Assembly: GCA_010093815.1 (NCBI GenBank)
Contig: ML996572.1
DNA length: 64,000 nucleotides
Source of the DNA: Pseudovirgaria hyperparasitica
Taxonomy: Eukaryota
Reading direction: 5' to 3' (one strand)
Below are positions 5,510 through 63,513 of this stretch, one piece after another (the stretch's first letter is position 1; every line of letters begins with the position of its first letter). The position numbers and the translations under genes were made by a program. The notes beneath the pieces are model-generated. The model saw nothing but the letters and a program-made list of their open reading frames with translations. It did no database searches and was not told where the DNA came from.

Positions 5510-8500
5510 TTAGTCCTCATCATAATTTCCACTAATGTCATCATCATCATCCTCCTCTTCCCCCTCCTCCCCCTCCTCCTCCTCATCATCATCATCATCA
5601 CCGTCTTCTTCTTCTTCACTGAACTCGCCTCTTACCATCCCTTCACCAGTGTTGGCAGTGGAAGCGATCGATGAAACTGCGACACCTCCACCCCCCGCGA
5701 AGAATGCGTGTTTTTCGGTCAAGGGCCGTCCTTGGCAAACGTAACCCATCGGTGTACTCAAAATATCTTGTCCATGACGGCGAAGAGCAAGATATGAAAG
5801 AAGAAATGGTGCGGGCCTAGGACAGAGAGATAGGACAGGCTCCGTGCTATCCGCTGCCGAGAGACTCTCGGTGCTAGTGTTGCTTGTCACGCTGCGAGAG
5901 CCGGAATCACTCGCCTGACTGCTTTCGTTCGCACCATGTGCATCCCTCGTGACTAAGTTCTTGATGTATGTATACTCGCTGAAGTGGAAATACAAACGTC
6001 CGGCGAGGATGCCGAGCTCGGTTGTTAGCCATCGAGGCATCACCAGTCCACTAGGAAGAGTTGGGAAGGCGTAAAAGGAAAGATCTGAGAATCTCAACAT
6101 GCCTTTAGACACTGGAGCAGCGTATGTGATCAGATGCATGCTTGGATAGCGCTGCGAGAACAGGAGAGGAAGCACTGCCTCGGCTTCTTCGGGAATGATG
6201 ACGAGTGCAGTGTACGTCTTGGAAGAGAAAAGGAGATATTCCACGGGACGCTGCATGAAGATCAGCAATCCATTCTTCAAGTTCAATGTTTCTATGAAGA
6301 TACTTACCAAGAAATTGTCCTTTCCCGCTTTCCCTTTCCTTTGCACTGTCCGCATGAACTCCAATGACACCCAGACCCTCGAACCTGCTGTGCTTAATCC
6401 ATGCGCTTTTCCCAAGCTTGTCTGGACTAACACCTCTAGCGATCTGAAATACCCACAGTCGTCAGGTAGACTTCCAGTCTGTACAAAAGACTTTATGGCT
6501 GGATGTAGTCCAGGGAATACTAATGCCGTGGCATGCCCCGGTGCTTGAACCTGCCGCACCTCCTGTATCTCCTGGGTGACTTGGCGCTCCTGTTCAACCT
6601 CCTCTAAAGCAGACGTACGTTGCGCATCCACCATGGCTGAACTATTCTGGCGGCGATTGAAGTCGTCAACAAAAGGCTGGAGCGCGGGATGTTTGATTGA
6701 GCTGCGCTGCTGAAGGACTCGCTCAGGGGTTTCTGCATCGCCGTAAAGCTGCTCGAGAGTTTGCATCTCTGGATGTTGAATGGCGTCTAGAAGATTTTCA
6801 CGCTGTTTGATGTCTGTGATTGCATTTCTATTTCTCGCAACTGCATCAAAGCGACGGCAAAAGTCTGTGCCTTGCGCGATGAAGAGACTTTGCATGTGCT
6901 CATTTGATCGGCAGGTCTGCTCTAGGAGCCACGAGACCACGTGGGATGAATCTATCTCTTCCTTTGACCGGGGCTTGCAGAAATCCACAATACTCTGGTG
7001 AACCTGTGGAGGTGCTATCCAGACGATGGACTGCGTAGTGCCGAGCTTTCGGAGGCGCATTGCCGCTAAGGGATATCAGCTAAGCGATACTCATACTAGA
7101 ATGTGGAGAAAGACTTACCTTGGACTGTATGATCCTTTGTCTGGTCAAGGGCTAATGTCAATGCCCCTCGCGCGACTGATGGGAATTTCATATCCACGCC
7201 TCTCGTATGATTTTCATCAAGATAAACCAAGCAACCTTCAAAGTTGTCGACAAACGGTGTAGCCAATAATGGAGCCTTCCGACCACCTCTATATTGCACC
7301 CAAGCCCGATTGTCCTCGCCGAAGAATACAGCCGCCTTAGCCTCATGATCAATCTTGAGCCAAAGTTCGACGAGGCTCTTGTTGTCCATCTCCATGATGA
7401 ACGCTCCAGCATCAATCAATATTCGAACTTTCATTGCTTTCAAACTATGAAGTAAGTCTTCTTCTGTACTCCATCTCCCTCCTGTTTCAGCAATGTGATA
7501 TTTCCGGTTGCGTGGATCGATGAGATACGTTAAGACCTCAGCGCTAGTTTGATGGAGTTCAGGCAAATCATTCTGGCTTATTGTAAGAGGCAGTAGTATC
7601 TTGTTGTCGTTGGTGCCACTGAAGCCCGTCGTAGCCGCGTTAGACGGAAATAGGGGTAGATCCCAACCGCTCGACTGCAACTTGACCTTGAATTGTTTCG
7701 CGTGCTGAGGAAAGACAAAATTGTTCATGAAGTGATCGAGTACACCTTGGTTGTGTCTTAGGCATGTCCACAAATGGTGAATCTGCATCTTGTCGTCAAG
7801 GTTGATTACACTCCAGTGCTGTAGAGTTTCTGGTAGAAAAGCGGCTCCATTTGACCATCTGTCATACTCGAATGCAGCGTCATCGGCCTGGAGGACTAAT
7901 CCGAGACCCTGTCTAAATTGCTCGATCGAAAGGCCTGTATAGTAGAAAGACAATATTGTCAGGACAATCGAAACGTCCGGATGCCCAAATTCAGACTGCT
8001 CTGAAGGTACTCCCTTGGCCTCGAATGGTACGGCAATCGGATCTCTCTTTGGGTGTAGTCCATATTGAGTGCCCCAGCGTTTCTTCAGACACAGCAAGAG
8101 AATCCTACACGAGAGCAACCCACGACATGCTAGAAGCGTTTTTCTGGCGCGTAATGGATCTTTGAAATACTTTAAAATCTGTTCGAATGCAGTCATTTCG
8201 AACTCTTCGCTATTGAGGATTAGGCGTATCTGTGAGCCCATCCAAAGAGGAACTTCGTTCTTGGTCTCTAGCAAAGGCGTCTTCATGTCGCTGATTTGCT
8301 CAATGAGGTGCTTATTCAAGGCATCTTCGACATCTTCATGGAGAATATACAGCAGAGGAAAGCCTTTTCCCCTAGCGACGAAGTCTATGTGCCTTGGATA
8401 CTGCCTGACAAGTGCTGGTAGCTGATCTTGTACCATAGCAAGGAGCTCTTGAGCTATCTTCCAACGATAAGGGTGACCGTCAACAGCAACCTGGTTGCCA

Positions 8501-11500
8501 CTCGGGTATACTAACTGTGTCTTTACAGCTAGGGAAAGATCAGATTCGTCGAGAACATCTCGACAGTTTTGGTCGAGCCAATCTTGAAATCTCATCATAT
8601 ACATGGCTTCTTTCAAGTTCCCATCGACTAATCGCTGTCTGCCACTCAGCTTGAATGACATCAAGTGCTCAGGAGCAGCTAGAATGATATCGCCGTCTTT
8701 CAAACATTCTTTGTGAAGCTTCTCAAATAAGCCTAGAATACCGCCTGTCGTCTTCGTTCTACGCGAGAAAGGGATATGAACGATTCGGCGGCCAATAAGG
8801 CCCCCCAGGCGGGACTGGAGAATTTGGGCTGTCTGCAACAACAGAGCCTTCGGGACAATGAGACGGACAAGTCGTTTTCCGTTCGCTAGCTCCGCAGCGA
8901 CCATCGGCATGATGCAAGAAGTTTTACCTGCACGAAATCAACAGACGCAATTCGAAAGGACTACATTTCACGTACCACGACCCATGTTGAGCTGCAAGAC
9001 CGTATTCTTTCCATTCCTCGGGTGTATCACCTCCTTTGCTACGTTGTGTTGCTCTCCACGTATCAATAAATTACTCTCAGCCTCCATCAAGAGCCATTCG
9101 GTATGGTCGCGTGGAGCCCATCCATAGTGACCGGGATTTTTCCACTCTTCTAGAAGACTGTTTTGGTCAGACTTCAAAGCTGCGTCCTGCATTCTGAGCA
9201 GCCATTGTAATGTGGCAAGCTGACTTGCATACTCCAGAAGAAGATCTCGAAGATCTTTATTAATGAGTTGCAAAGTCGAACTTCTTAATAACTCAAGAAG
9301 AGAGGTAGTTGTAGAGCAAGGCCAGAGACCTCCACGTCGAAGCCAGTCAGAAGTGACCATACTGCTATCAAGTGAATGACTCATGCTCTTGAACAGGGCA
9401 CTCAAGACCTCACTCGTCTTATTGATACTGAGACCTATTAATTCAAGGCTCGGCGGCTTCGATAAAACACCAGAAGATGTCTCTCGATTTCTGAGGACAC
9501 TCAGACTAGCTTCAAGATCCGCTCCATATCTAGCCCTGACATCGTTAAAGGATCTTGTGAAGTTGCAGAGTATCTTTTCAAGCTCTTTTTCCATCGCAGT
9601 CCGGTCATTTTCCACGGGCGCTGGCCGCTGTGGGCCAGATGGTCCATTCCGAGTGTCTGTGACCTGATTTAGAAAGGGTATGTGGACGACCTTATTTGGC
9701 TGGGGTTCCAAGCTTGCATCAGACGCAAGGGTCATCAGGGATGGGGTCAACTGTGCTGGAAGTAATTTTGATTCATGAACGGCCACGTACTGACCGGTCC
9801 AGACATGAGGAGTGGTAAAAGCGAGGGGTTTGTAATATCTATCCAGGATGGACTGCACCTGATCTACGAAGATAGATAGCCCTCTATTCCGAGAAAGTCG
9901 TTCCCATTCCGGTGTAATTCTTTCCAAAGCATCTTCCAGATCAATGATAGTTGTCTCGAATCCATCGATAGATAACTCGGTGGTGGGCCATTGCCTACAG
10001 AAGAAGTCTGCCACTAGTTTGCTCTCTGCGACACACTTCGCGTGATGGTCTTCAGCTTCGATTTCCCTCTTGAACCTCCTGCCTTGCATTCGGCCCATTG
10101 GGGCTGGGTGGCTCTGAAGGATGAGTGCCTGTAGCGGTTTCTTTTTAGGGACTTCGTGATGCTTAAAGTCGGTGTATGAGTCTTCTTCGGGCCATGTGAT
10201 ACTCTCCATTTCGGGGATACGCGCAAACGCAGCTAGCATTTGAATGGCGTCTATGCTTAGGTTCTTGTTGAATGATAAGACAGCAAGTCGATACATATTG
10301 TCATAGTTGAACACACCCTTGGCGTGGCTGAGTATGCGAGCAAGGCTGCCCCATTGTTGACCAAGGTCAACATCCATAACGGTAGCCAGAGTTAAGGTCT
10401 CGTGTCTGAGATCGTCCTTGAAACCACCTATCAGAGGAAATTTCTCAAAGACTTGTGCGAGAGTGCGAGGAAGATCTAGGTTGAACTCCTTCATGCACAA
10501 CAAGACCACAGTTTGGTAGACCTCGGTGCTTCTATTTTCACTGAGCGCTTTGTCCCTGCTTGGATACTTCAGATCCACACAGAGGCTTTTGTTCTCAGTC
10601 AGTATTGAGGCACGTTCAAAGCGTTGTCTCTGACAAATTGCGCGATCTCTCAGATAGTCAGGCTCAGACTGTGTATACAGATCTTTTCCTGTATTTTGAA
10701 TGAATGAATCTAACTCTTGAGAGCGACGCAGAATTGATGACACGGCGTCAAAGAGGCGATCTCCTTGAATTGAGACAGTCAAGTCGTCTTTCCATGTACA
10801 CCTCTGAAGTCGTTTCATTCCCGTGGGGTAAAATTCACGAGAAGGACAAAGATTCGCAATATCGCCGAGTATTGAGATAGGCACCGAATTTAGAGAAGTC
10901 CAGGGTGAAGCCTGGCCCGATTGCAATATGGCTAGAGCCTCTTCTTGTCCAGTCCGACCAGTGAGTACATCTGGCAATACGAACGACGTGTATGCATGAT
11001 ATCTGGCCTTGAGATAGATTAACAAAGGCTCCGGGGCACAGGTCAAGCGACCCAGGACTTTGTCAATATTGAATCGCGCATATGTAGACGTGCTGGCTGC
11101 TGTGACGGAAACGTGCATGCCTTGCCGCTCAAATATTAATGGACCGGTTGATGTTATTATGCTACGCTGCTCGTAGTTCAACGGGTTTCGTAAAACGATT
11201 TTGCTCCTCAATCCATAGAATGTACCCGGGTCCTGATTAGGGTCAATCTCAGACTGGAGCTCTTTTGATTCAAATAGTCTATTCCGATTAAGAAAGAACG
11301 TCAGATCTAGATAGCGAAGCTCTACACACAAACTTCCACGAGCAGGTTGATAGGCGGTGATCCGCTCCGGGATTTCGAAGCCGCCGAAGATTTGAGTAAT
11401 TTGGGAGAATAGCCTGGACTGTGGGCTAACTAATCTGACACACCGGCGCTTCGCGGTAGCAGAATTCATGTCGACTACCCAATCACTCGCGATTGTCTTC

Positions 11501-14500
11501 CAGACATGAGGCTTTCGTCGCGTCTCCAGACGACCGGAGTCTAGTTTCAGCCAGTGGACGCAGTCGTCAAGGAGGCTGGCGGGTAAATCGAATCCTGTAT
11601 CATCTTTGAATAGCCGCCGAGGTATAAACTCATGCAGACCATCCTCTGACCAGGCTTGAATGATGACTCTGTCCCCTTTTGTACCGAAGTATACTTCGTG
11701 GCCTTGCATTCTAGTTCCGAGACGATAGCTCATACCGTTGAAGGTAGCCGGGAATGTTAACAAGTGTTGTTGTCCAAAGAGATCCTGTACATCTGCTGAT
11801 GAGCTGATCTCATTAGGGAGCCTCCCAAGAGGTTTGCCATTCACAAGGAGGTAGCCTTCGAGGAAATGATATTGGATATTATCCTCGACGACTCTGCCAT
11901 TAAGCTGGCGGCGAAATACTGCTGTGACCCAATGCTCGTATGGTGGCAACTGAAGTACCCAAGTGGCGTTTCGGTCACTTACGGAGTGAGGCTCTCCCCA
12001 TGTCGCTTTGATAGCTGTCTCAACTTCGACCTGATACAGCAGCAAAGCAATAACAAGTTGAGGTCTGAGCGCCTGAACCATTTTCAGGTCAGCAGTCGCA
12101 AAGTTCTGCAAAGAGCTTGGTAGGTCTTTGATAGCAACCACAAAGTTTGCTCTTAATGCTAAAGATGCCTGTATGAAGACATTGACATCTTCGGCGGTCA
12201 TTTCTGTGGCTGAGCTAGCCATATGGGCGAACGTACGACGACAAAGGATAGCAGCCCAAAACCCGTATGTCGTAGCTACGTCGACAGTGCTTGGATCCGT
12301 TGCATTCATGATCTGTGTTCGAAGTATTGTTGCCCACTTCAAAGTTGTTTTCCGTGCCGTTCCTAGTAGCTCCAAGGCAATCGTACGATATGCTTTCGGG
12401 GACATTTCAATGACGCGCAAGAGCAAGATAATGATAACTGCCATGCAATTGTGCTCTCGCCAATTGGATTCAATAATGGAGAGTTTCTGTTCAAGAGCTT
12501 CGAGAAGGCATTCGCAAAATTGGGACTCTTGTAAGAAGTGATGATGATCCATAGCCTTTCCCTTGACCTTAGTCAAAGGCCCGACCTGCAGAGAAAGTTG
12601 CGTCAAAACTAACATCGTGTCTTCAGAGCTGAAATTGATATTAGTAGAGCTCAGTTCGACTAGTATTGCCATCCACCGTAGTTTCATAGTGGACAGCAAC
12701 TTCTGATAAGATGCGAATTCCATCTTCGAAATACCTGCTGGGCATTTAGTCTGTCCAGCGACAATCTCATATGAACTCGGTCCTGTAACAGTGGCTGGAG
12801 GGTGTTGGGGTACTTCTATGACGGTATTGATGATACATCGAGGAACATGGATACCAAAGAGGTGCTGTAGCGTAGGTGGAAGGTTGAGGTCATCCACCCA
12901 TATTTTCGCCTCCGAGTCATAGTATGCGAACTTGAGACCATTAGGTAGGAGGATATCCTTCAACTCAACTTTCATTCTTTGTGAGCTGAAGTGTGTCTGC
13001 AGAAAAGACTTCTTCTGAGAGGCAAGCGTAATCGACGTAGATCGTTTTCTTCGGTATGGCCCTAATTGTGAATAGTTGTCCAATTCCATGGAAGGGACTG
13101 AGGACTGCACTGGCCTACCTGGGTATGCCAGATCAAGCAAGATCTTCCAGACCACCTGTCGATACATTTCAATGTGGTGTGGAGTGCCTAGCTCAAAGAC
13201 AGTGACACCGCTCTGCACTTCGTCGGCGGACAAGTAGTCCTCATGGCAAGTCATCTTCATGCGCTTCTGCATTCGCCAGTGCCAGCAACGGGTACAACCC
13301 TTGACGATACGAGCTCCATTCATGTCAGTCCTGCAGACGCACGACCCTTTTGAGGCACCTTTGGCGTGCATATCATACTCGGTGCATGCCTCAGCCCACT
13401 CCCTTTCTTTGGCTACGCGGCGTTTTGTGCTGGTCTTCTGTATCTTTGCTCGGAGAGCCTGTAGATCTGGTTGTTCAGATACGAAATTTACAGCAAAGCA
13501 TTGGTCGTCTATTGAACTCAACATGTTCCTTCCCGGATAACGACAATTCTGCTTTCGATCGAACATGTACTCTTGTATTACGCGAAGGCGCTCTTGATCT
13601 ATCCGGAGTGAAAGTTGTAATACATTAAGAAGTTCTGGTGTGAACATAATATCATATTGCACGGTGAGAGGACAGGCTACTGCAAGCCACTTGTCCATCT
13701 CAGCCCATAGATCGAATACACTCAGGACAAATATGCTGCGCTGGTCGGGACCAAGATGGAGCGGCTCAATCCGCGCGAACATACCGAGAATGTCTTTCGC
13801 GAGGCTGATAACCCTATCTTCAGGTGACACAGTACAGGTCAGGCTGCGAAGGGTGCGGCACCTAATGTGATCTTCCATTAGAGCGAGGCTATAGTACAGC
13901 TCGGCTTCGATGTGCGCTTCTCCCATCTTAATGCTAAACTCTGGTTGCGCATTTAAGGATTGCACGAGATCAATATTGAAATGAAGAGATCGTATGCGCT
14001 CCTCAAGATATGCTTTACTGCGGGGCATTGGTAGGATCAAATCCGAGTCACTAGCAAACCTAGACAACATCGGTATCTTTCGAGTGATTACACGTTTGTA
14101 CGAAGTCCAAGCATTGCCAAAAGTTTCGTTTGCTTGGTCTATGACGTCCTGGAAGTAGCCACGGGCATTGTTCAGTAATGTTTGAGCGTCCCCTGAGACG
14201 CAGCCTTCAAGCTTGGCAAGACGGCGACATAGCTTGGTCCGGAGCAGAACGGACAATTCGATATGCAGTACACCTGACCCATCGCGTAGGAGTTCGGCTA
14301 GAAGGACACAACCAAGCAGCTTGTAGTAGGTTTTTCCCATCATATCTCCAAGTGCCCTGTACAGTTGTAGTTGAGACGTGACTCTAAGACCAAGCCACAA
14401 TGGTGCTCGTCTCCAAGGAATCTCCGACGTTCCAAAGTTTACGTCATCGTTCACTCGTTTCTGTATTCCAGTTGGCTCCACGGGGCTGCCTAGCCCTTCA

Positions 14501-15174
14501 AGAATAGCCATGAGGCATTGGCTTACGAGAGCAGGATCCTTTGTATCTCTGGACTCGGCAACCGACGCTTTCGCCTTGTCTGCACGCGCAGAGAATGAGC
14601 TCAGAGACTCTCTATTGGCCTGCTCTAGGTATCTGGCGAGATTGGATCGAAAGTGAGGATTGACAAACTCGGCTTGTGGTACTTCTACTGCTCGACCCGG
14701 AAAGTCCCAAAGAAGAGCGCCTTTGCTTGCGAGGACATGGGTTGACTGCGGAGACAGCTCGAACACTTCAATGATGATATTCTGATTTTTTCCGTCACTG
14801 TGCGTCCCGTTAGGAAGGAGTTTGTAAACAAGTAGCGATCAAGAATACCTGTTGGGCTTGCTGATAATCAAAGCAGAATTTTGTTCTCGCAAGTGGTACA
14901 AAACCATTGAACCAGCGCCCGACTCTTCAAATGAATTGAGTACTTGATCAACGTCGAGATTACATTTCGACAGTTGCAGACTATGCTGTAGAGAGCTCGA
15001 GACGGTGGCCAAGGGCTCGGTGGGATGAGAACGTAGCAAGGCTTGAAGTGTAGTACAGGCATGGATGAGCCGTTCGAAAAGAGCGACCTCAGTTTCTTCC
15101 AGTCTCGGATCTTGATGATCGGGGAGTCTTGGCGGTAAGACAATATGGTTATACACAGTTTCGATCGAAGCCAT
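5510..15174 (-). CDS. Giant DUF3638/DUF3645-family protein (SF2 helicase-like P-loop ATPase), about 3151 aa, 5 exons
   Basis: Exons 15174-14849, 14797-8976, 8927-7119, 7065-6308 and 6250-5510 sum to 9456 nt and stay in frame; all four introns are GT...AG. Splicing builds the Walker A motif QLNMGRGKTS and KDHTVQAAMRLR. Also present: VLDESD, AVPFEAKGVPSEQSEFGHPD (DUF3645-type), GFSGT, HTRGVD, and the family-like N-terminus YNHIVLPPRLP. Confidence 0.88.
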
Positions 15175-16925
15175 TCTGATAAAGATAGAGAACTTGATAA
15201 GATAGACGAAGAAGAAGAATTGATGTAGAGAAGATCGTGAGAAGGTCGCGAGAATAGGATAGAAAACAAACAGCGGTGAAGGTTCGTTAGCAAGGATTGT
15301 TGGAGTCACTCCAAAACCAGCAGAGAAAATCTGCATGCAATTTGCGGCCTGACGGGAAGATACAGCGCCGAGGTATCACAAGAATGGGCATAAGCGAATG
15401 AAGACCAGTGATCTGCGAGGCAAACACTGGGGAGCGAATGCTGGTGCGTGATTAAAGCCACAGACGGGAAGAGAGGTGAAAGTGGATGACCTGACCTTGT
15501 AATATAACAAAGACTTTGTTTGAAGTTGATGCTTCGCATTTGGGAAGTGTAAGCTGACACGCTGATCGACCTGGGATCTGTAGAAAGCTCACCTCTTTGC
15601 AGTGCTCACTTCTGCTCCAGCACTCGACCATTGTATAACCATAAACGTTGCCATATATGTTCCGTTGTACTGTACTGATGTATCTTATTCTGCAGTGTTC
15701 ATCGTGTTGAAAACAAAAAGCTAGTTCATATGCTCAGTGTCAGAGTTGAGATTAGCAGTGAGAAGAAGGCTCATCGTCGAGCTTCTACCGCTGAAGGCTT
15801 CAAGATCCACCTCGAACAGACTGTTCCTACTCTGATAGTAGATAGAATACCAGAACACTGAGAATTGAAATTCAGAGCTGAGTGTCGCTGGACACTACGG
15901 CGCTGTTGCGACAAATACTAGAAGCAGCCTTTTGTCTAGAAAACACACATGGCGCAGTGATAAAGAAGAAACCTGAAACAAGGCTGAAGTACTTCTTTCG
16001 TCCATACTCCCCACACAGAAGTAGCAGCGCTCGTTCCTTCCTTCCTACCTTTCTTCCTTGCCACCTCACGTCACCTACCTAAGGTATATTTGCTCACAGC
16101 TAGGACTTTCCCGAGGTCTCGAAAGTGACTACTGAGAATACATCAAAGACAGCAAGTTGACCATATCTCACATGCCTTAAACTGCGCTCACTCGACAGCC
16201 CCCTCACCTCAGACTGCCATTTGTACTTGTCACACAAACTGGCAGGAGTCTAGCTGCAGCATCCGACAAGCCGAAACTTCCATTACGCATGAGAGAGCTA
16301 TTGCCTGGGTTTACCATATGCAAAGGTGTAGCAGCAGACGATTGTTTGATGGAGTGGAGAGGTGACCGTTATGGTTGTATACCCTCTTTGAGAGCAAATG
16401 GTTTGTTAGAACCTGGTTGATAAGTCGGGGCTTTAAGAGATGGTGAAAAGATTCGTGCTGGACGGGTGGTGGACGAGTGAGGGTGGTGGGCGGTGGGTTA
16501 GTTGGCTGAAGAGCCGCTCATGTTGCCAAGAAGAGTCCGGTCTGACTAGGAGAAGAAGATAATGGAAATTGAAGTCGTACCTTTGGCATTGAAGAGAAAT
16601 GCAATGTCTCAAGAGTAGAAAGAGACATGATCTTAGCAAGGAGAGCGAGACTCGAGAGTGATGTCACAAGGAAAGGTATCACGAAGAAGAAGAGAGAAGA
16701 CGACTTGGAGAGAAGAAGACGCAGAACTTTTGATTGAAGCGCACTATGCGCAAATGACAACGAGAACCGCAAGCAAACAGCAAAAAAGAAAAAGAAAAAC
16801 CCGGCAAAAGTCCAACGCAAACAAGCAACCACACCAAACAAACAACAGAAGAAAAGACACCCTGCAATGCATTTCAGTCCACCCAAGCTTCCGGCTCTTG
16901 CAATGACGCGACGACGACGAGGGCT

Positions 16926-21875: not shown

Positions 21876-22504
21876 ATGAAGGCTACGTTCGTACTTGCCG
21901 CTCTCGCTGTCGCCGTTGCTGGCCAGACCACTGCTGATATCCCTTCCTGTGCTGTAAGTCATAACCACTATGCATCTTACACTTCAATTGACACCATATA
22001 ACAGCTGCAATGTCTCGCCACTTCCATCACAGGCGCCGGCTGCTCTGTTGAAGACCAGGCCTGCAGCTGTGAGAAGACGGATGCCATCACCACCACTGCC
22101 ACACCTTGTGTGCTTGCCGCATGCTCTATCGATGATGCCCTTAGTACGTGTTCTCCCTTCTCCACTATTGTGTTGATATCTGGCTTAAGCCTTGTTCAAA
22201 CCATCCTAACATCAGCTCAGAGACCCAGCAAGTCACCCAGGCCATCTGCGCCAACCTGTCCAACGGTGGTGGCCAGTCCTCCGCCGCGCCCTCTGCCCCA
22301 GCTTCATCCGAAGCACCAGCACCATCCGAGGCACCATCGTCAGAGGAAACACCTGCACCCACTCCTACTCCTACGCCTACCCCCACTGGATCTGATGAGG
22401 AGCCCACTCCCACTTCGACTCCACCAACTTACACCGGTGCGGCTGCTCGCTACGGCGCAAACATCGCTGCCGGTGTCCTGGCTGTCGGTGCCGCTATGCT
22501 GTAG
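21876..22504 (+). CDS. GPI-anchored CFEM-domain cell-surface protein (3 exons)
   Basis: Signal peptide MKATFVLAALAVAVAG. Introns 21954-22004 and 22144-22220. The spliced product has the 8-Cys CFEM pattern IPSCALQCL...GCSVEDQACSC...TPCVLAAC...AIC, a Ser/Pro/Thr stalk and a GPI signal (YTGAAARYGANIAAGVLAVGAAML). Confidence 0.93.
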
Positions 22505-23089
22505 ATGAAGGTTTTAGAAGCTGCTCGTTGATCGGGGATGGCTTATACGATGTAATACGACCATATCGCAGGAATTTAATGCAGATGAATGAATGGAAGT
22601 AATTGGACATGACACCTGCTTTTTGTTCTGAATGACTCGTATATCACTTTTTCTGTTTTGTGATCTGACCTATACCCTCCCCCATGCACACTCCCTGATC
22701 TCTGCACATCCCGAACTTGGCCCTCTGTACATGTGCGAGCCTTTCACGCACCATCTTCCTTTCTCGAGCTTGAAGCTGTAGAAGTTTCCTACCCCCTGTC
22801 GAGATACACAATGCGAAAAGAGGGGGAAAAAAACCTATTCCAACGTATTCCACTGAATTCCAGTACCGCAACGCCCACATCCATCTCTCAACACCACACA
22901 TAGTCCTCCACGTCATTCTCTTCATCTCCTATATTCAGATAATGCACTTGTACCCATAACTCTCTCACTCTCTTCCAAGCATACCATAACTTTTAATAAG
23001 ATTTACTACAAAACCGGAATGATTACAGGGGCAATCTTTATGATCTTAAATATCAAATTTCAAGATTGTAGAGGTGGCATAAAATACGC

Positions 23090-25982: not shown

Positions 25983-26180
25983 CATACATACATACATACA
26001 TACATACATACATACATACATACATACATACATACATACATACATACATACATACATACATACATACATACATACATNNNNNNNNNNACATACATACATA
26101 CATACATACATACATACATACATACATACATACATACATACATACATACATACATACATACATACATACATACATACATA
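25983..26180. repeat. (CATA)n microsatellite spanning a 10-N assembly gap (26078-26087)
   Basis: Direct tandem CATA units on both sides of the N run. Confidence 0.98.
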
Positions 26181-40215: not shown

Positions 40216-41660
<1,445 letters not shown>

Positions 41661-46144: not shown

Positions 46145-49100
46145 TCAAGCAACTTTGCTGCCTTTCGATTTGTACCGATAAGAGAAATCAAGCTCCCCCA
46201 CCAGTCCACGCACGAGACTATGATGGTCAGTCAGCGCACATGCCCGCTCATTGGGATATAGCTTACTTGGTCAGAGTATGTAGGTCAGCAATGATACTTC
46301 GACTCGCGATCTGCATAACTGCAAACCCAGAATACCCCGGCTCAGCAACATGCCTTACGGCCATGATATGCGGATCCAGCTCTTGTAGATGTCTCAAGAG
46401 ATCGTACTCTTTTGGTAAAGGTGGGTGAGGCGGTAGAGGTTGCGCGTTTATCATACTCGACGATAGCAGATACAACGTAGATGTCACGCTATGCGAAGGA
46501 ATCTGGAGATGGGGATCCGCGAGGAGATGTCTAAAGCTATCGAACCACTTCGTATGCGTAGCACTGTTCGGATGAGTGAGTGAAAATGAGCCTGAGGCGT
46601 GTCCCATCAATGCCGAATACATAACGATACGATCAATTGTGGCGATGATCTTGTCGTAAGTCTCTTTGGGAAAGTATCCGTCTATAGGAAGTTGCCACCG
46701 AGTCATTTCACTCTCTCCGCGCATGCGCTCGATGAGGACCAGAATTTTCGCGAGTATGCGCATACGTTCTTTTTGAAGTCTTCGACCTGGACTGGCTTTG
46801 GAACCCATGTCACCGTCATCGCCGCGAGCGCGAGCGTTGATAGTCTCCTGAATGATTGCGTAGTGGTGAGCGGCAAACAGCAATGTAGTACCAACGTCCT
46901 TGCGAAGCTCCGATCTTTCCGTCACTGGGAAAGGAAAGATGGTGAAGATGTATGCTACCAACAATCCTGCAGAGACTGTGGCAAGTCGGATTGGAACCAG
47001 TAAATATAGGGGGTGGTAATCCTGGCCATTTGACGTAGCTACCTCGAGACCAAGCTCGATTACTTGCAGCTCGTAACCTACACAGATGACCGTGGTCACC
47101 GCTGCGATCAAACCAACAAGTAAGTACTTCGATTTGACAACGACTATCCAGCCAAAACCAAGCATAGCAATGAATAGGAAGACGAGAGTACCAGCACTTT
47201 CGCCTGCCACGATGTAATATACGATATACGACGCGACCGCAGCCAGTAATGTTCCGGAGAATCTGAGAAAGTATATCCATGTGGCGAGACCGGCGGTGCG
47301 CGTCATAGAGACAGTGCATATCTAAGAAACTCGTTAGCCAGTATGCAGAGTCAGAGGTCCCAACTCACGATTGCTGCCCAGAACAGCCGCTGTCGCACGA
47401 AAAAGTTCTGTGTTTCTTCAAGAAAAGCGGCAATTCCTATAGACATGATAGCGCATGCGATTCGAAAGCCGAAAACGGAGTGTTCGCTGCGTAACAGTGT
47501 TGGCACTCGTCGAAACGATGCTCCAAACCGCTGCCACGATGTTTTGGCCGGAAGACGCTCTGGATCTTTCCGTGGATTGAAAGCCTCGCCATACAAGACA
47601 TCGCTCACATCGGCCAAGCCATCGTCGTCGTTGGTAGGATCGGCGAATCTACCAACAGAGAATAACCACTTTCGTACCCGCTTCCAACTAGGGTATATTA
47701 TATGTTTCTGCAGCCTCTTTCCGTCACAATGCCGGACAAGTGCTACAAAAGCGTTGCTTGATGACCAGAAAAGATGTTCGATCTACAGCCATATTAGTAG
47801 ACTGCACTTTTGAGGTGAGTAAGACTGACATGTAACAGCACGAAAAGCTGGCGTTGACGATGAACAGTAGCAGCATCAAGGTCATGCATAGGCCATTCCC
47901 ATTCTGTTTCGAAGGAATCTGCTGGTATCGGAATTTCGTGCATTTCGCAGAACTGATGAAGACATTGACGACGAGTGGCACGGAACAGGCTGACACGCTC
48001 CTCGAAATGGGCAGCGAAGCCATCATGACCTGGCGAAGAGTTATCCTCTGCCCGTTCTGCATCACCAAGCCTTGACCTTCTATTGAAATGATGCTTGTTT
48101 AATTCGAGACGAATGAGGATATGTTGTACTGCCTCGATCATGATAGAAGAGATATTCTGTACAGGGTCCCGTATACTCTGCATAATGAAGCGGTACTCCT
48201 CTTCAACTCTTTCTCGATCAAGATGAGGTGCATCTGGAAATATATTGTGGTCCGCATCTGAGCTTGCATTATGCCATCCGCGAAGAAGGAGATCGCATAC
48301 GGGACTCTAGAGCCTGATGAATTCGTCGAAATTCAACGACTGGGCCGGGAGGTTATCATCCCCCTCGTTGGTGTCACATCTGTCGTGGACATATTCGATC
48401 GTCTTGCGCAAAGTGCCGGAACGGATATCTACCTGTAGCTTTGTATTGATAGTGCGTAGAGCTCGCGTCTCTTTACGAAGCGTCTCGGCCTCCACGGTAT
48501 CGACAAATGGACTCTTCTCTTCGAGGCTTTGAAAGTATTCTCTTTGTGCTGTAACAACCTTTTCAATACCATGAAAATAAGCTCTCAAACCATTCAATAC
48601 AGGCGTACGACAATTCGTAGGATTGACCAAGAGTGATGTCGCAGTTCCGATCGCCATACCAGTCAAAAGCGTTTCCAGAAATCGTTCCACGAAACCGAAG
48701 GCAGAGCTGGTGCCGTTATCCAAAGACGAAAACCGGGCACCATATATCATACCGACGACTGCAAATATCGTCGCCATGACTCCTGCAAACTTATACTGTG
48801 GTCTAGCCGATTTGAGTGAATTAATGATGTAGACTTGGAAGAACAGCCAAACTGCACAGACCGCAGAAGCTGACGAGTTATACCCAGTCAGAGGCTCTCC
48901 AGGAGGTGTTGTGTGCTCCCGAGCCTTGAAAGCACTCCAGACGCCTAAAGTCGTACATGATGCGGTCAGACATACAGATAGAACATTCACAAGCATGCTC
49001 TCTAGGAAACTTGCCCGCGGTGCCAGAACATTGGAGAGAATCACTGCTACAGCGATGATGTATCCAGTAGTGCCATAATGCAGTGAGACTCTATTGTCCT

Positions 49101-49281
49101 GAAAGATGGCTACTGCAATGGTTGGGCCAAGAGCATATTTGACCATATTCAGGAAGACTGGAGCTGTGATGCCTGTCTTCTTCCATAGCTTCCTCATGCG
49201 TGATCGCCAAGTAGGTATCGATGTCTGAGCAGTTTTCCATTGCGTGAGCCCATCGGAGCTATTAGTCTTGCTCACGTTCAT
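46145..49281 (-). pseudogene. ArAE_2/FUSC-like (Bre4-type) multi-pass transporter, disrupted as assembled by an internal 144-bp inversion
   Basis: Exons 49281-47830, 47782-47369, 47321-46267 and 46217-46145. Motifs YNSSASAVCAVWLFF, RKDPERLP, SVFGFRIACA, QRLFWAAI, GYELQV, GYSGFAVMQ and LVGELDFS. The only lesion found is TAG 48307-48309, inside the inverted segment 48277-48420. Confidence 0.85.
48277..48420 (+). other. Intragenic micro-inversion bounded by the inverted 4-mer TCCG/CGGA
   Basis: The plus strand reads SAKKEIAYGTLEPDEFVEIQRLGREVIIPLVGVTSVVDIFDRLAQSAG (48 codons, no stop). This fits in frame between minus-strand ...KLQVDIR and WHNASSDAD... of the host gene. Confidence 0.9.
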
Positions 49282-49947
49282 AGCCGACGTTGTATTGTAT
49301 TCGAGTAAGTGATGAGACCGTGAAGGGATCGAGTTCCAAGAAGCTCATGGCGTCAGCTCATTCGACTCTAACAGGCCAGGCAACAAGCTTCTGTCTCGAT
49401 GATCTTCTGGAGCTTGATTGATAGAGCGTTCGAGGCAATTGAGCTTCGAGACGATTTTCGCTCTTTTCATCATGCACTTGACTCAAACGAGAATAGTTCG
49501 CCGTGACAACCAATCGGATGACATCACTCACGTAGGTCGCAGACCAACGACGTCGGACGAACAAACGGCATTCAACAATTTGAGTGACATCACCTTCTAG
49601 CGTTGTTAATGTCAGTTGAGTCGAAGTCTGCACTATTCGAAGTGTATGATGATGAACATGTATGACGATAGCTCATACAAGTTCTCCCTTACAACTTTGA
49701 CCGGTTTCCTCATACTTGGAATGCACAATGCCCTTCCTGGAGGGCGAAGGTGGTAGTGTATATAGATAAGCCGTGATACTGTACTAACTCGTGTTGAACG
49801 ACTGATGGGTTTATATTCTGCCTTTGCTGTTTGTCAACCATATTATACCTTACATAAAAATATATTACCTGTACATTTTAGAGGTACAGCTTTAGGTATA
49901 GCTTTACACGTTTTCGATGTTTATCCTTGCAGCCGACTCTCTGATAC

Positions 49948-50611
49948 CTAGACACTCGCGGGCTGCGCATCTTCTGGCTTCGCTTCATACGATATCCTAC
50001 CGGCCGGCAAGAAGAACAATGCAACAAGCGCCCCCTTCCGCACCGTTGGATAATGATGAGTCCCGGGCCCTGGACTCGTCCACCCAGCACCCTGCCATCC
50101 AGACATGCCCATCAGCTCAGCATTTGAATCTAACTGAATCACGCAATTGATCTCGCCATATGGATGGGCGTGGTATTGGCCGCTATACTCCTCCTGTGAG
50201 TCCATGTAAACGGTGGTGATGCTGAGGAACCGAGTGTCTGCAGTGGGGATCGAGATTTTGCCGCGGCGGTACTTGCGGCCGTCAAGTTCTGCGGATGTGA
50301 GCATCAGGGTAGGCTTCATAATCGGCTGTTTTGGCGGACCTGTCTCTGCTACCCATCCTTCGTTGAGGCCTTGCTTGATGTAACAACAGAAGTCGTCATA
50401 GTATGGATTGCCTGGACCATAGTCCTGGTTGAGTCGAGCTTCAAGATCTTTGCCAGGAGTCCTTGTGAACACGATGAGTCTACTAATGAAGTCAAAGATA
50501 ACGCCCTTACATGTTCTCAATCTCATTGAAGAATTCGCTGCATCGCTTGACAAGCTTCTGCGCAGTAGGGTATTTGTCAAGCTCAAGGACTTTGGCTGCA
50601 CCAGGCTGCAT
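49948..50611 (-). CDS. p-hydroxylaminobenzoate lyase-like cupin (DUF4863/PnbB-like), 3 exons
   Basis: ATG 50611 (MQPGAAKVLELDKYP). Introns 50510..50462 (AAG acceptor) and 50339..50289. Motifs LDGRKYRRGKI, GQYHAHPYGEINCV, GAGWTSPGPGTHHYP and ALFFLPAGRISY. Confidence 0.85.
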
Positions 50612-51326
50612 GGTAGACAGTTTCGCCTTGTCTGATCGATACTTCAATTGCAGTCTTTGTTGCTAGGTTGCTTTCGTATTTCAGCTAACATGGCGAGAAA
50701 CCCTAGCTCTTTTCCCCGCTTTGGTACCACACTAGTTGAAATACGAACATTTCGGGCAACTTCGGCCATTTATGCTATCTTGAATTTGAAGTAGATACCG
50801 TCGTAGACTTTGATTCTCGTACCACCTGTAAAGGGCTTTCTTGACTGGGACTCGTTCAACATGCGGAAGTATACGTCTCACTCGCGCCCGAGTCCTGAAT
50901 AGGGATATAGTGAGGGACGTAGTAAAGAGTCTGCATAAGAGCCTGCATGAAGGCGAGGTACTGATAATGCAACATGTTTGACCACGCTGAGTGACCATTA
51001 GAATAGCTCGAAGACATTTGTGATGCGTGGGAATGTCATTCGGGAACACAGACTCGGGACGTGAACAAACTTCGAGCATATTGATGTCGAGAGTAACAAG
51101 GTCAATTAGATGAACTACGATGCAATAAGGCTACAGTTTTGGTACCTATAAGGCTTTTAATTGATGACAACCGCTCCTAAAGAAAAACAAAGTTAAATAG
51201 AACTTCCGGACTTGATCCAAGCTGATCCGTTAGTCTCGTTAAAGTACAAGGGAATAGGTTGCAAATTAGTAGCAGCTGCCTGTAGTTACCTCGTGAAAAG
51301 TTTAAGCTTACACGATGTCAGTCAGA

Positions 51327-62953: not shown

Positions 62954-63385
62954 TTACTCCGCATCAATGACAATGGTAGTAGCGCTGGTCTGGTCGCATA
63001 CGTAATCGTTTGGTCCATTACCGCCAGCGTGGCAGTAGGTTGGCACATCACCCTCGCCGTAGTAACCAAATGCCGTGCCGAGCTCGTGGTAGATGCGGAG
63101 TCCAAACTCGGTGGTCTGGCCAGGGTAGAGTGCAAAGCGGTATTTGGTTTCGCCGCATGTGATGACGTCCGAGGGGAAGCCTGGAGTGCTGGCAGAGCAG
63201 TCGATGGCTGAGCCGTCGTTGCCGGAGAGCTTGAAACCGACGGCCTGGATGCCGTTATTCTTGCGCACGTACAAGTCGGCGATGTCAATGTTCTCGTAGC
63301 TGGTTGAGTCTCGGGCGGTGGAGCGAGTGGGTGCAGCTATGGCCAGGGCGGCGAAGAGCGAAGCGGAGGCTGCGAGAAATTGCAT
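62954..63385 (-). CDS. Alt a 1-like small secreted protein (AA1 family, related to PevD1/MoHrip1 elicitors)
   Basis: 143 aa with a signal peptide and 4 Cys. Motifs CGETKYRF, LRIYHELG and GEGDVPTYCHAGGNGPNDYVCDQ. Confidence 0.9.
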   Translation of the reverse strand: MQFLAASASLFAALAIAAPTRSTARDSTSYENIDIADLYVRKNNGIQAVGFKLSGNDGSAIDCSASTPGFPSDVITCGETKYRFALYPGQTTEFGLRIYHELGTAFGYYGEGDVPTYCHAGGNGPNDYVCDQTSATTIVIDAE

Positions 63386-63513
63386 GATGATGGTTGATGT
63401 TTGAGGTCGTTGGTTTGATGGTTGACGTTGTGAGTGGTTTGATTGTGTAGTAGTTGTTATAGTGTGCTTTGGTTGTTGATGAGATAGCTATGTAGGGGGC
63501 GGGATGCCCGTCA

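Follow-up and report, generated by a model that had tools for sequence, protein, structure and literature searches.

A probable one-off microinversion in exon 1 of an ArAE_2/BRE4-family gene of Pseudovirgaria hyperparasitica, masked by the public gene model

The window, which is the whole 64,000-nucleotide stretch of contig ML996572.1 that was analysed here, carries on its minus strand a gene of the ArAE_2_N/FUSC_2/BRE4 family. A protein search with this gene returned 49 longer relatives; the deposited protein P0001 (957 aa), with the source name hypothetical protein, Pseudovirgaria hyperparasitica, is 100% identical over its aligned part, and the relatives that follow it reach 41–47% identity at best. 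Mapping P0001 onto the window and combining the result with the Pfam matches gave the following gene structure, in which all three introns are canonical.

46145..49197, minus strand: whole gene, ArAE_2_N / FUSC_2 / BRE4 family (Pfam and P0001 exon mapping)
49197-47830, 47782-47369, 47321-46267 and 46217-46145, minus strand: exons of the gene (P0001 mapped to the window)
47783-47829, minus strand: intron of 47 nt, starting GTCAGT, canonical
47322-47368, minus strand: intron of 47 nt, starting GTGAGT, canonical
46218-46266, minus strand: intron of 49 nt, starting GTAAGC, canonical

The Pfam search identified ArAE_2_N (PF10337) on 48310-49344 of the minus strand, scoring 54.4 bits (cut-off 23.5, E 1.5e-14), while FUSC_2 (PF13515; 26.8 bits, cut-off 25.6) and BRE4 (PF10334; 25.8 bits, cut-off 25.7) both match 46266-47321 of the minus strand and are barely over their thresholds. 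An original prediction, made from the DNA alone, had proposed an ArAE_2/Bre4-like family for this gene, and the three Pfam families, all above their cut-offs, agree with it. The product is accordingly described here as a putative membrane transporter, and the Pfam family names themselves say 'putative'. At profile position 280 of 470 the ArAE_2_N match breaks off, at the very point where the inversion described below begins. Upstream of the annotated start at 49197, an in-frame ATG is present at 49279-49281 of the minus strand, 28 codons further out, and its use would give a protein beginning MNVSK. The true start may lie further upstream than 49197, since the N-terminal extensions of the homologues vary between 20 and 80 residues.

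In the surroundings, 34 of the 66 window ORFs with 130 aa or more were scanned with Pfam, a set chosen without antisense overlaps and without the gene under study. The genes recognised are ordinary ones and include SurE, a DUF6606/DUF3638/DUF3645 giant, CFEM, a kinase, a GH18 chitinase and a PnbB-like lyase, together with SF1/BBP, GST, RabGAP, DUF2985, Sen15 and AltA1. The immediate upstream neighbour of the broken gene, which is putatively aromatic-acid-exporter-like, is an ORF for a PnbB-like 4-hydroxylaminobenzoate lyase (49951-50643, minus strand, 212.6 bits), a family known mainly from bacteria. The giant gene (7099-15375, minus strand, about 2,700 codons) consists of three ORFs in the same frame, 14842-15375, 8971-14838 and 7099-8937; the Pfam profile positions run on seamlessly from one ORF to the next (99 to 100; 52 to 52), and the ORFs are probably separated by short in-frame introns containing stops. 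Types of secreted protein are also found in the window, namely the GH18 chitinase (40219-41208, minus strand, 247.6 bits), a CFEM-domain ORF (22002-22505, plus strand) and an AltA1-domain ORF (62957-63487, minus strand); all three types are often discussed for fungi living on other organisms. The sole run of N in the window, 10 in number at 26078-26087, is presumably a scaffold gap.

Within exon 1 the coding sequence is interrupted. Two stop-to-stop ORFs of the minus strand, 48307-49344 and 47794-48306, share one frame; the first one ends C-terminally in ...KLQVDIRSGTLRK...FIRL followed by a stop, and the second one starts N-terminally with SPVCDLLLRGWHNASS. The stop between them would cut the product to 296 residues from the annotated start, versus 969 for the full protein. 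On the opposite strand, a plus-strand ORF at 48262-48438 includes a 48-aa peptide, which is the one that the original prediction had described as free of stops. The positions named there for the stop, for the terminal 4-mers and for a further CGGAT at 48422-48426 were likewise all correct, and the features of the segment are as follows.

48277..48420, strand not applicable: inverted segment at its maximal extent, 144 bp; its plus strand encodes 48 residues that are missing from the minus-strand gene
48281-48416: minimal core of the inverted segment, 136 bp, the terminal 4-mers being mutually reverse complement
48277..48280, plus strand: TCCG, left arm of the 4-bp terminal inverted repeat, read from the sequence
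48417..48420, plus strand: CGGA, right arm of the 4-bp terminal inverted repeat, read from the sequence
48307..48309, minus strand: premature in-frame TAG resulting from the inversion (cta on the plus strand), the 1 internal stop of the as-is coding sequence
48305..48340, minus strand: pseudo-intron of 36 nt in the P0001 model (GTCGTT...AG), which skips the TAG and lies entirely within the inverted segment

When the 48-aa plus-strand peptide was searched alone against Pfam, 0 families were obtained at E <= 1. Pfam models this part of the domain too weakly, so we turned to a family profile built from 37 homologues of at least 900 aa, with P0001 excluded (profile length 1048). By BLASTP the peptide matches residues 298-340 of the homologue P0004, with 20/43 identical positions (47%, E 5e-13), and residues 339-381 of the homologue P0005 (E 6e-13), a resemblance well outside what chance would give. 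The as-is reading of the minus strand, with X at the stop, is without a match to the homologues (best E 36), and the plus-strand peptide is without a match to P0001. The plus-strand peptide and the two flanks were also entered, each as a sequence of its own, into an alignment with 12 full-length homologues. In this alignment the peptide occupies exactly 48 columns between the two flanks and is free of gaps: the end of the upstream flank, KLQVDI(R), faces KLHGDL, the peptide faces FAKREIAYGK...P.VGL...DLFERVA, and the downstream flank restarts with a W that stands at the same column in 8/12 homologues. The comparison of the flipped peptide with homologues, which had been put forward as a check on the inversion, gives a collinear alignment here, besides the two BLASTP matches above. 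The scores against the family profile, for exon 1 and for the full coding sequence (CDS), are listed here.

Exon 1, as-is: 354.6 bits, two pieces (profile 16-281 and 359-508)
Exon 1, re-inverted: 429.9 bits, one piece (profile 16-508)
Exon 1, segment deleted: 349.8 bits, two pieces
Full CDS, as-is: 983.3 bits, two pieces, 1 internal stop
Full CDS, P0001 model: 983.0 bits, two pieces
Full CDS, re-inverted: 1060.4 bits, one piece (profile 34-1025 of 1048), 969 aa, 0 internal stops

Re-inversion of the segment thus brings a gain of approximately 75–77 bits against the family profile, and the re-inverted CDS is collinear with the family of 37 homologues over its full length. The continuous frame that had been foreseen for the re-inverted gene is indeed obtained, as 969 aa without internal stops and with a single profile match; with the three canonical introns in place, the remaining CDS matches the profile end to end, and this upholds the earlier statement that the gene has no other lesion. 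Judged from homology, the segment 48277-48420 is the family's own sequence in reversed orientation. At the level of protein and reading frame, it reads as a stretch replaced in place by its reverse complement at unchanged length. Since re-inversion alone restores a single profile match, the segment is neither an intron nor a divergent linker. An intron or a deletable linker had also been tried as such, and removal of the 144 bp gave no improvement (349.8 bits versus 354.6 bits as-is). Trans-splicing of an antisense exon was rejected as well, the borders of the segment on the plus strand having neither an upstream AG nor a downstream GT.

The position of the breakpoints was addressed by a scan of 961 intervals, with left ends at 48262-48292 and right ends at 48405-48435, each scored against the family profile. 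The best of the 961 is 48277-48420, with 429.7 bits, which is the very interval originally proposed. As its ends form a 4-bp inverted repeat, this interval is equivalent to each one down to 48281-48416. Intervals with the same centre, from 48270-48427 to 48284-48413, score at most 1–3 bits below the best, so that from homology alone the breakpoints are known to within about ±7 bp and no better. The segment has to include the A of the AK[RK]E motif, conserved in 12/12 homologues, and to stop just short of the W present in 8/12, which points to a left breakpoint within the 4-bp repeat. According to our script, the TCCG/CGGA ends have 4 bp of inverted identity inward and 0 bp of outward extension. 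Among 200,000 random intervals of 100–200 bp drawn from this window, 4 bp or more of terminal inverted identity is reached with P = 0.0167, a statistic that is weakened by the breakpoint uncertainty of about ±7 bp. A 4-bp microhomology at the breakpoints is likely, in the sense of best supported and not proven. The second CGGAT (48422-48426) can be paired with ATCCG (48276-48280), and this candidate was rejected: inverting 48276-48426 shifts the centre by 5 bases, so the frame shifts, and this interval, which was scanned among the 961, is absent from the best 8 of 961. In either orientation the tandem CGGA-A-CGGAT reads the same and falls outside the segment; the second CGGAT is for this reason irrelevant to the event.

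The public gene model takes a different path through the segment. When P0001 is mapped to the window, a 39-nt gap with a split His codon is observed at the pseudo-intron, and the protein there reads ...DDNLPA-H-PVCDLLLRGWHN, a nonsense sequence from which the stop has been spliced out. The model brings no gain against the family profile, with 983.0 bits versus 983.3 bits for the as-is CDS, and its 36-nt 'intron' is most likely an annotation workaround. In the deposited 957-aa protein, 36 antisense-derived nonsense residues replace the conserved block of 48 residues, and the public record of P0001 conceals a disabling lesion. This could mislead alignments, orthology calls and gene-family counts. 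The case illustrates how automated gene models may mask disabling lesions, and looking on the opposite strand for profile segments that a gene lacks could be adopted routinely to detect pseudogenes and misassemblies.

Altogether, these data make it probable that a real, recent and one-off microinversion has produced a null allele, which the public gene model masks. The event would be a pure in-place microinversion of 136–144 bp in exon 1 of an otherwise intact ArAE_2/BRE4-family gene. In a first version of the mechanism, a nascent strand ending in TCCG would re-anneal to CGGA on the opposite template, the segment would be copied backwards and the strand would return at the second arm, i.e. a double template switch. 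In a second version, a break inside the segment would be repaired by microhomology-mediated break-induced replication. The pair TCCG...CGGA could serve the outward and the return switch alike. As an outcome, 48 conserved residues would be turned into unrelated sequence with a TAG, and the reading frame predicts either a truncated product of 296 residues or transcript decay, hence a null allele of one member of the gene family. Identity to 6 homologues is 33–44% inside the segment versus 37–42% outside; the event is likely recent, because the segment is no more diverged than the rest and the gene is without any other lesion. Mechanism, recency and presence in the real DNA are what we infer from these observations. 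Among the origins offered in the original prediction, a microhomology-mediated template-switch inversion fits best, and the 4-bp breakpoint on which it draws is the best supported one without being proven.

The absence of decay fits a recent event and an artefact equally, and the rival that has to be weighed above all is that the living fungus has the intact orientation, the inverted path having arisen during library construction or assembly. We regard this as rather improbable, although it keeps an appreciable share of the probability. As an artefact predicts, the gene has no flaw elsewhere and the flipped peptide is no more diverged than the rest; the sequence comes from a single short-read draft assembly, and the annotators' model needed its 36-nt pseudo-intron exactly here. 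To look for an intact allele elsewhere, the 48-aa peptide was searched against longer proteins in a collection of 5.8 billion, which gave 12 candidates, none at E <= 10, and a search of the 345-aa upstream piece among proteins of near length gave 41% identity at best and no record from the same species; both are weak negatives. The assembly, as described in supplementary table 5 of its source, was built with AllPathsLG from Illumina 2x150 bp reads of 270-bp fragments and a 5.8-kb mate-pair library (PMC7082219). By our reasoning from that method, a 4-bp repeat would hold no ambiguity for a large-k de Bruijn graph, and the inverted path would therefore depend on real junction reads; both junctions would have to occur in many reads, and the full 144 bp would fit within merged 270-bp fragments. 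Besides, no N or gap is found nearby, the nearest one (26078-26087) being 22 kb off. The junctions are seamless, the frame is kept and the likely microhomology is typical of natural microinversions. There is also no second copy in the window to mis-join: a search by blastn-short for another copy, donor or paralogue of the segment in the window found none, the next match being 13 nt long with E 0.11. A pure assembly artefact is thus unlikely, with some probability left to it.

A programmed or recurrent reversible switch, in which the orientation of the segment flips the gene on or off, is far less probable still. It is true that the frame is fully open in one orientation and stopped in the other, in a gene that is otherwise intact, and the terminal inverted 4-mers would permit exact reversal. 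However, the inverted repeat measures only 4 bp without outward extension, and no longer one, imperfect repeats included, was found bracketing the segment. Domains of recombinases, integrases or transposases were absent by Pfam from the 34 scanned ORFs (out of the 66 that reach 130 aa in the window). The single-stranded DNA fold of the segment, considered for a hairpin or cruciform, is unremarkable, since its minimum free energy of -22.1 kcal/mol corresponds to z = +0.54 and 145/200 shuffles fold equally well or better. Moreover, the OFF state is merely nonsense sequence. The ON/OFF allele that the original prediction had entertained therefore finds no support in the 4-bp repeat, in the scanned ORFs or in a flipped state that amounts to a stop. 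No intragenic inverton is known to us from a nuclear gene of a fungus, and there was none on such a case among the titles that the literature searches listed. If recurrent flipping were true, it would represent a heritable and reversible ON/OFF allele of a membrane transporter, in other words intragenic phase variation in a filamentous fungus; that such flipping occurs in fungal populations through the 4-bp inverted ends, without a dedicated recombinase, is in our judgment very hard to credit. As for the possibility that there is no inversion and that an intron or a divergent lineage-specific linker matches in antisense by chance, a stop-free antisense frame of 48 codons is not rare in itself and an intron takes up part of the interval in the public model, but the antisense peptide matches at E 5e-13 in the correct place and re-inverting adds 75 bits, so that on sequence grounds we consider this reading already refuted and grant it practically no probability.

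If the one-off microinversion is real, it would constitute a clean and datable gene-inactivating microinversion in a nuclear gene of a filamentous fungus. Among the titles listed by the literature searches, there was again none on a microinversion in a fungal nuclear gene. The microinversion is an already known class of mutation, and nothing is changed here with regard to mechanism.

With respect to its own family, the gene has the three domains of ArAE_2/BRE4 proteins (PF10337, PF13515, PF10334) and is collinear with the 37 homologues once re-inverted; this copy is interrupted, though, and the function assigned to the family is still putative. Site-specific invertible switches are represented by the bacterial Hin/Gin/Fim invertons and by the yeast 2-micron FLP/FRT system. 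As in these, the orientation of the segment decides whether a product can form. Unlike them, the locus has neither a recombinase in the scanned ORFs of the window nor repeats of the length of a recombination site, and the segment is coding sequence instead of a promoter or an alternative exon. A four-point model of short template-switch mutations reportedly accounts for in-place inversions bounded by inverted microhomology. In agreement with this model, and with microhomology-mediated break-induced replication, TCCG/CGGA would be able to serve both switches; most events described under either heading are far shorter, and sequence alone cannot separate the mechanisms.

A clean inversion in place, bordered by a short inverted repeat, is what characterises microinversions, and the closest comparison is with those catalogued between human and chimpanzee. 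In that survey, 59/59 definite microinversions are flanked by inverted repeats of 3-75 nt, and in 28/59 the repeats measure 4-7 nt (PMC8755829). A double template switch is among the mechanisms that its authors consider; they question whether two switches could take place within repeats of 3-4 nt, and prefer microhomology-mediated break-induced replication where the repeats are short (PMC8755829). The present segment differs from the human–chimpanzee cases in its length, 136–144 bp versus 17-33 nt (PMC8755829), and in its setting, a fungal coding exon in which it would create a null allele and in which its purity applies to the level of protein and frame only. Like them (PMC8755829), it lies in place with no net gain or loss and is seemingly one-off, and its best-supported edges would likewise have a short perfect inverted repeat.
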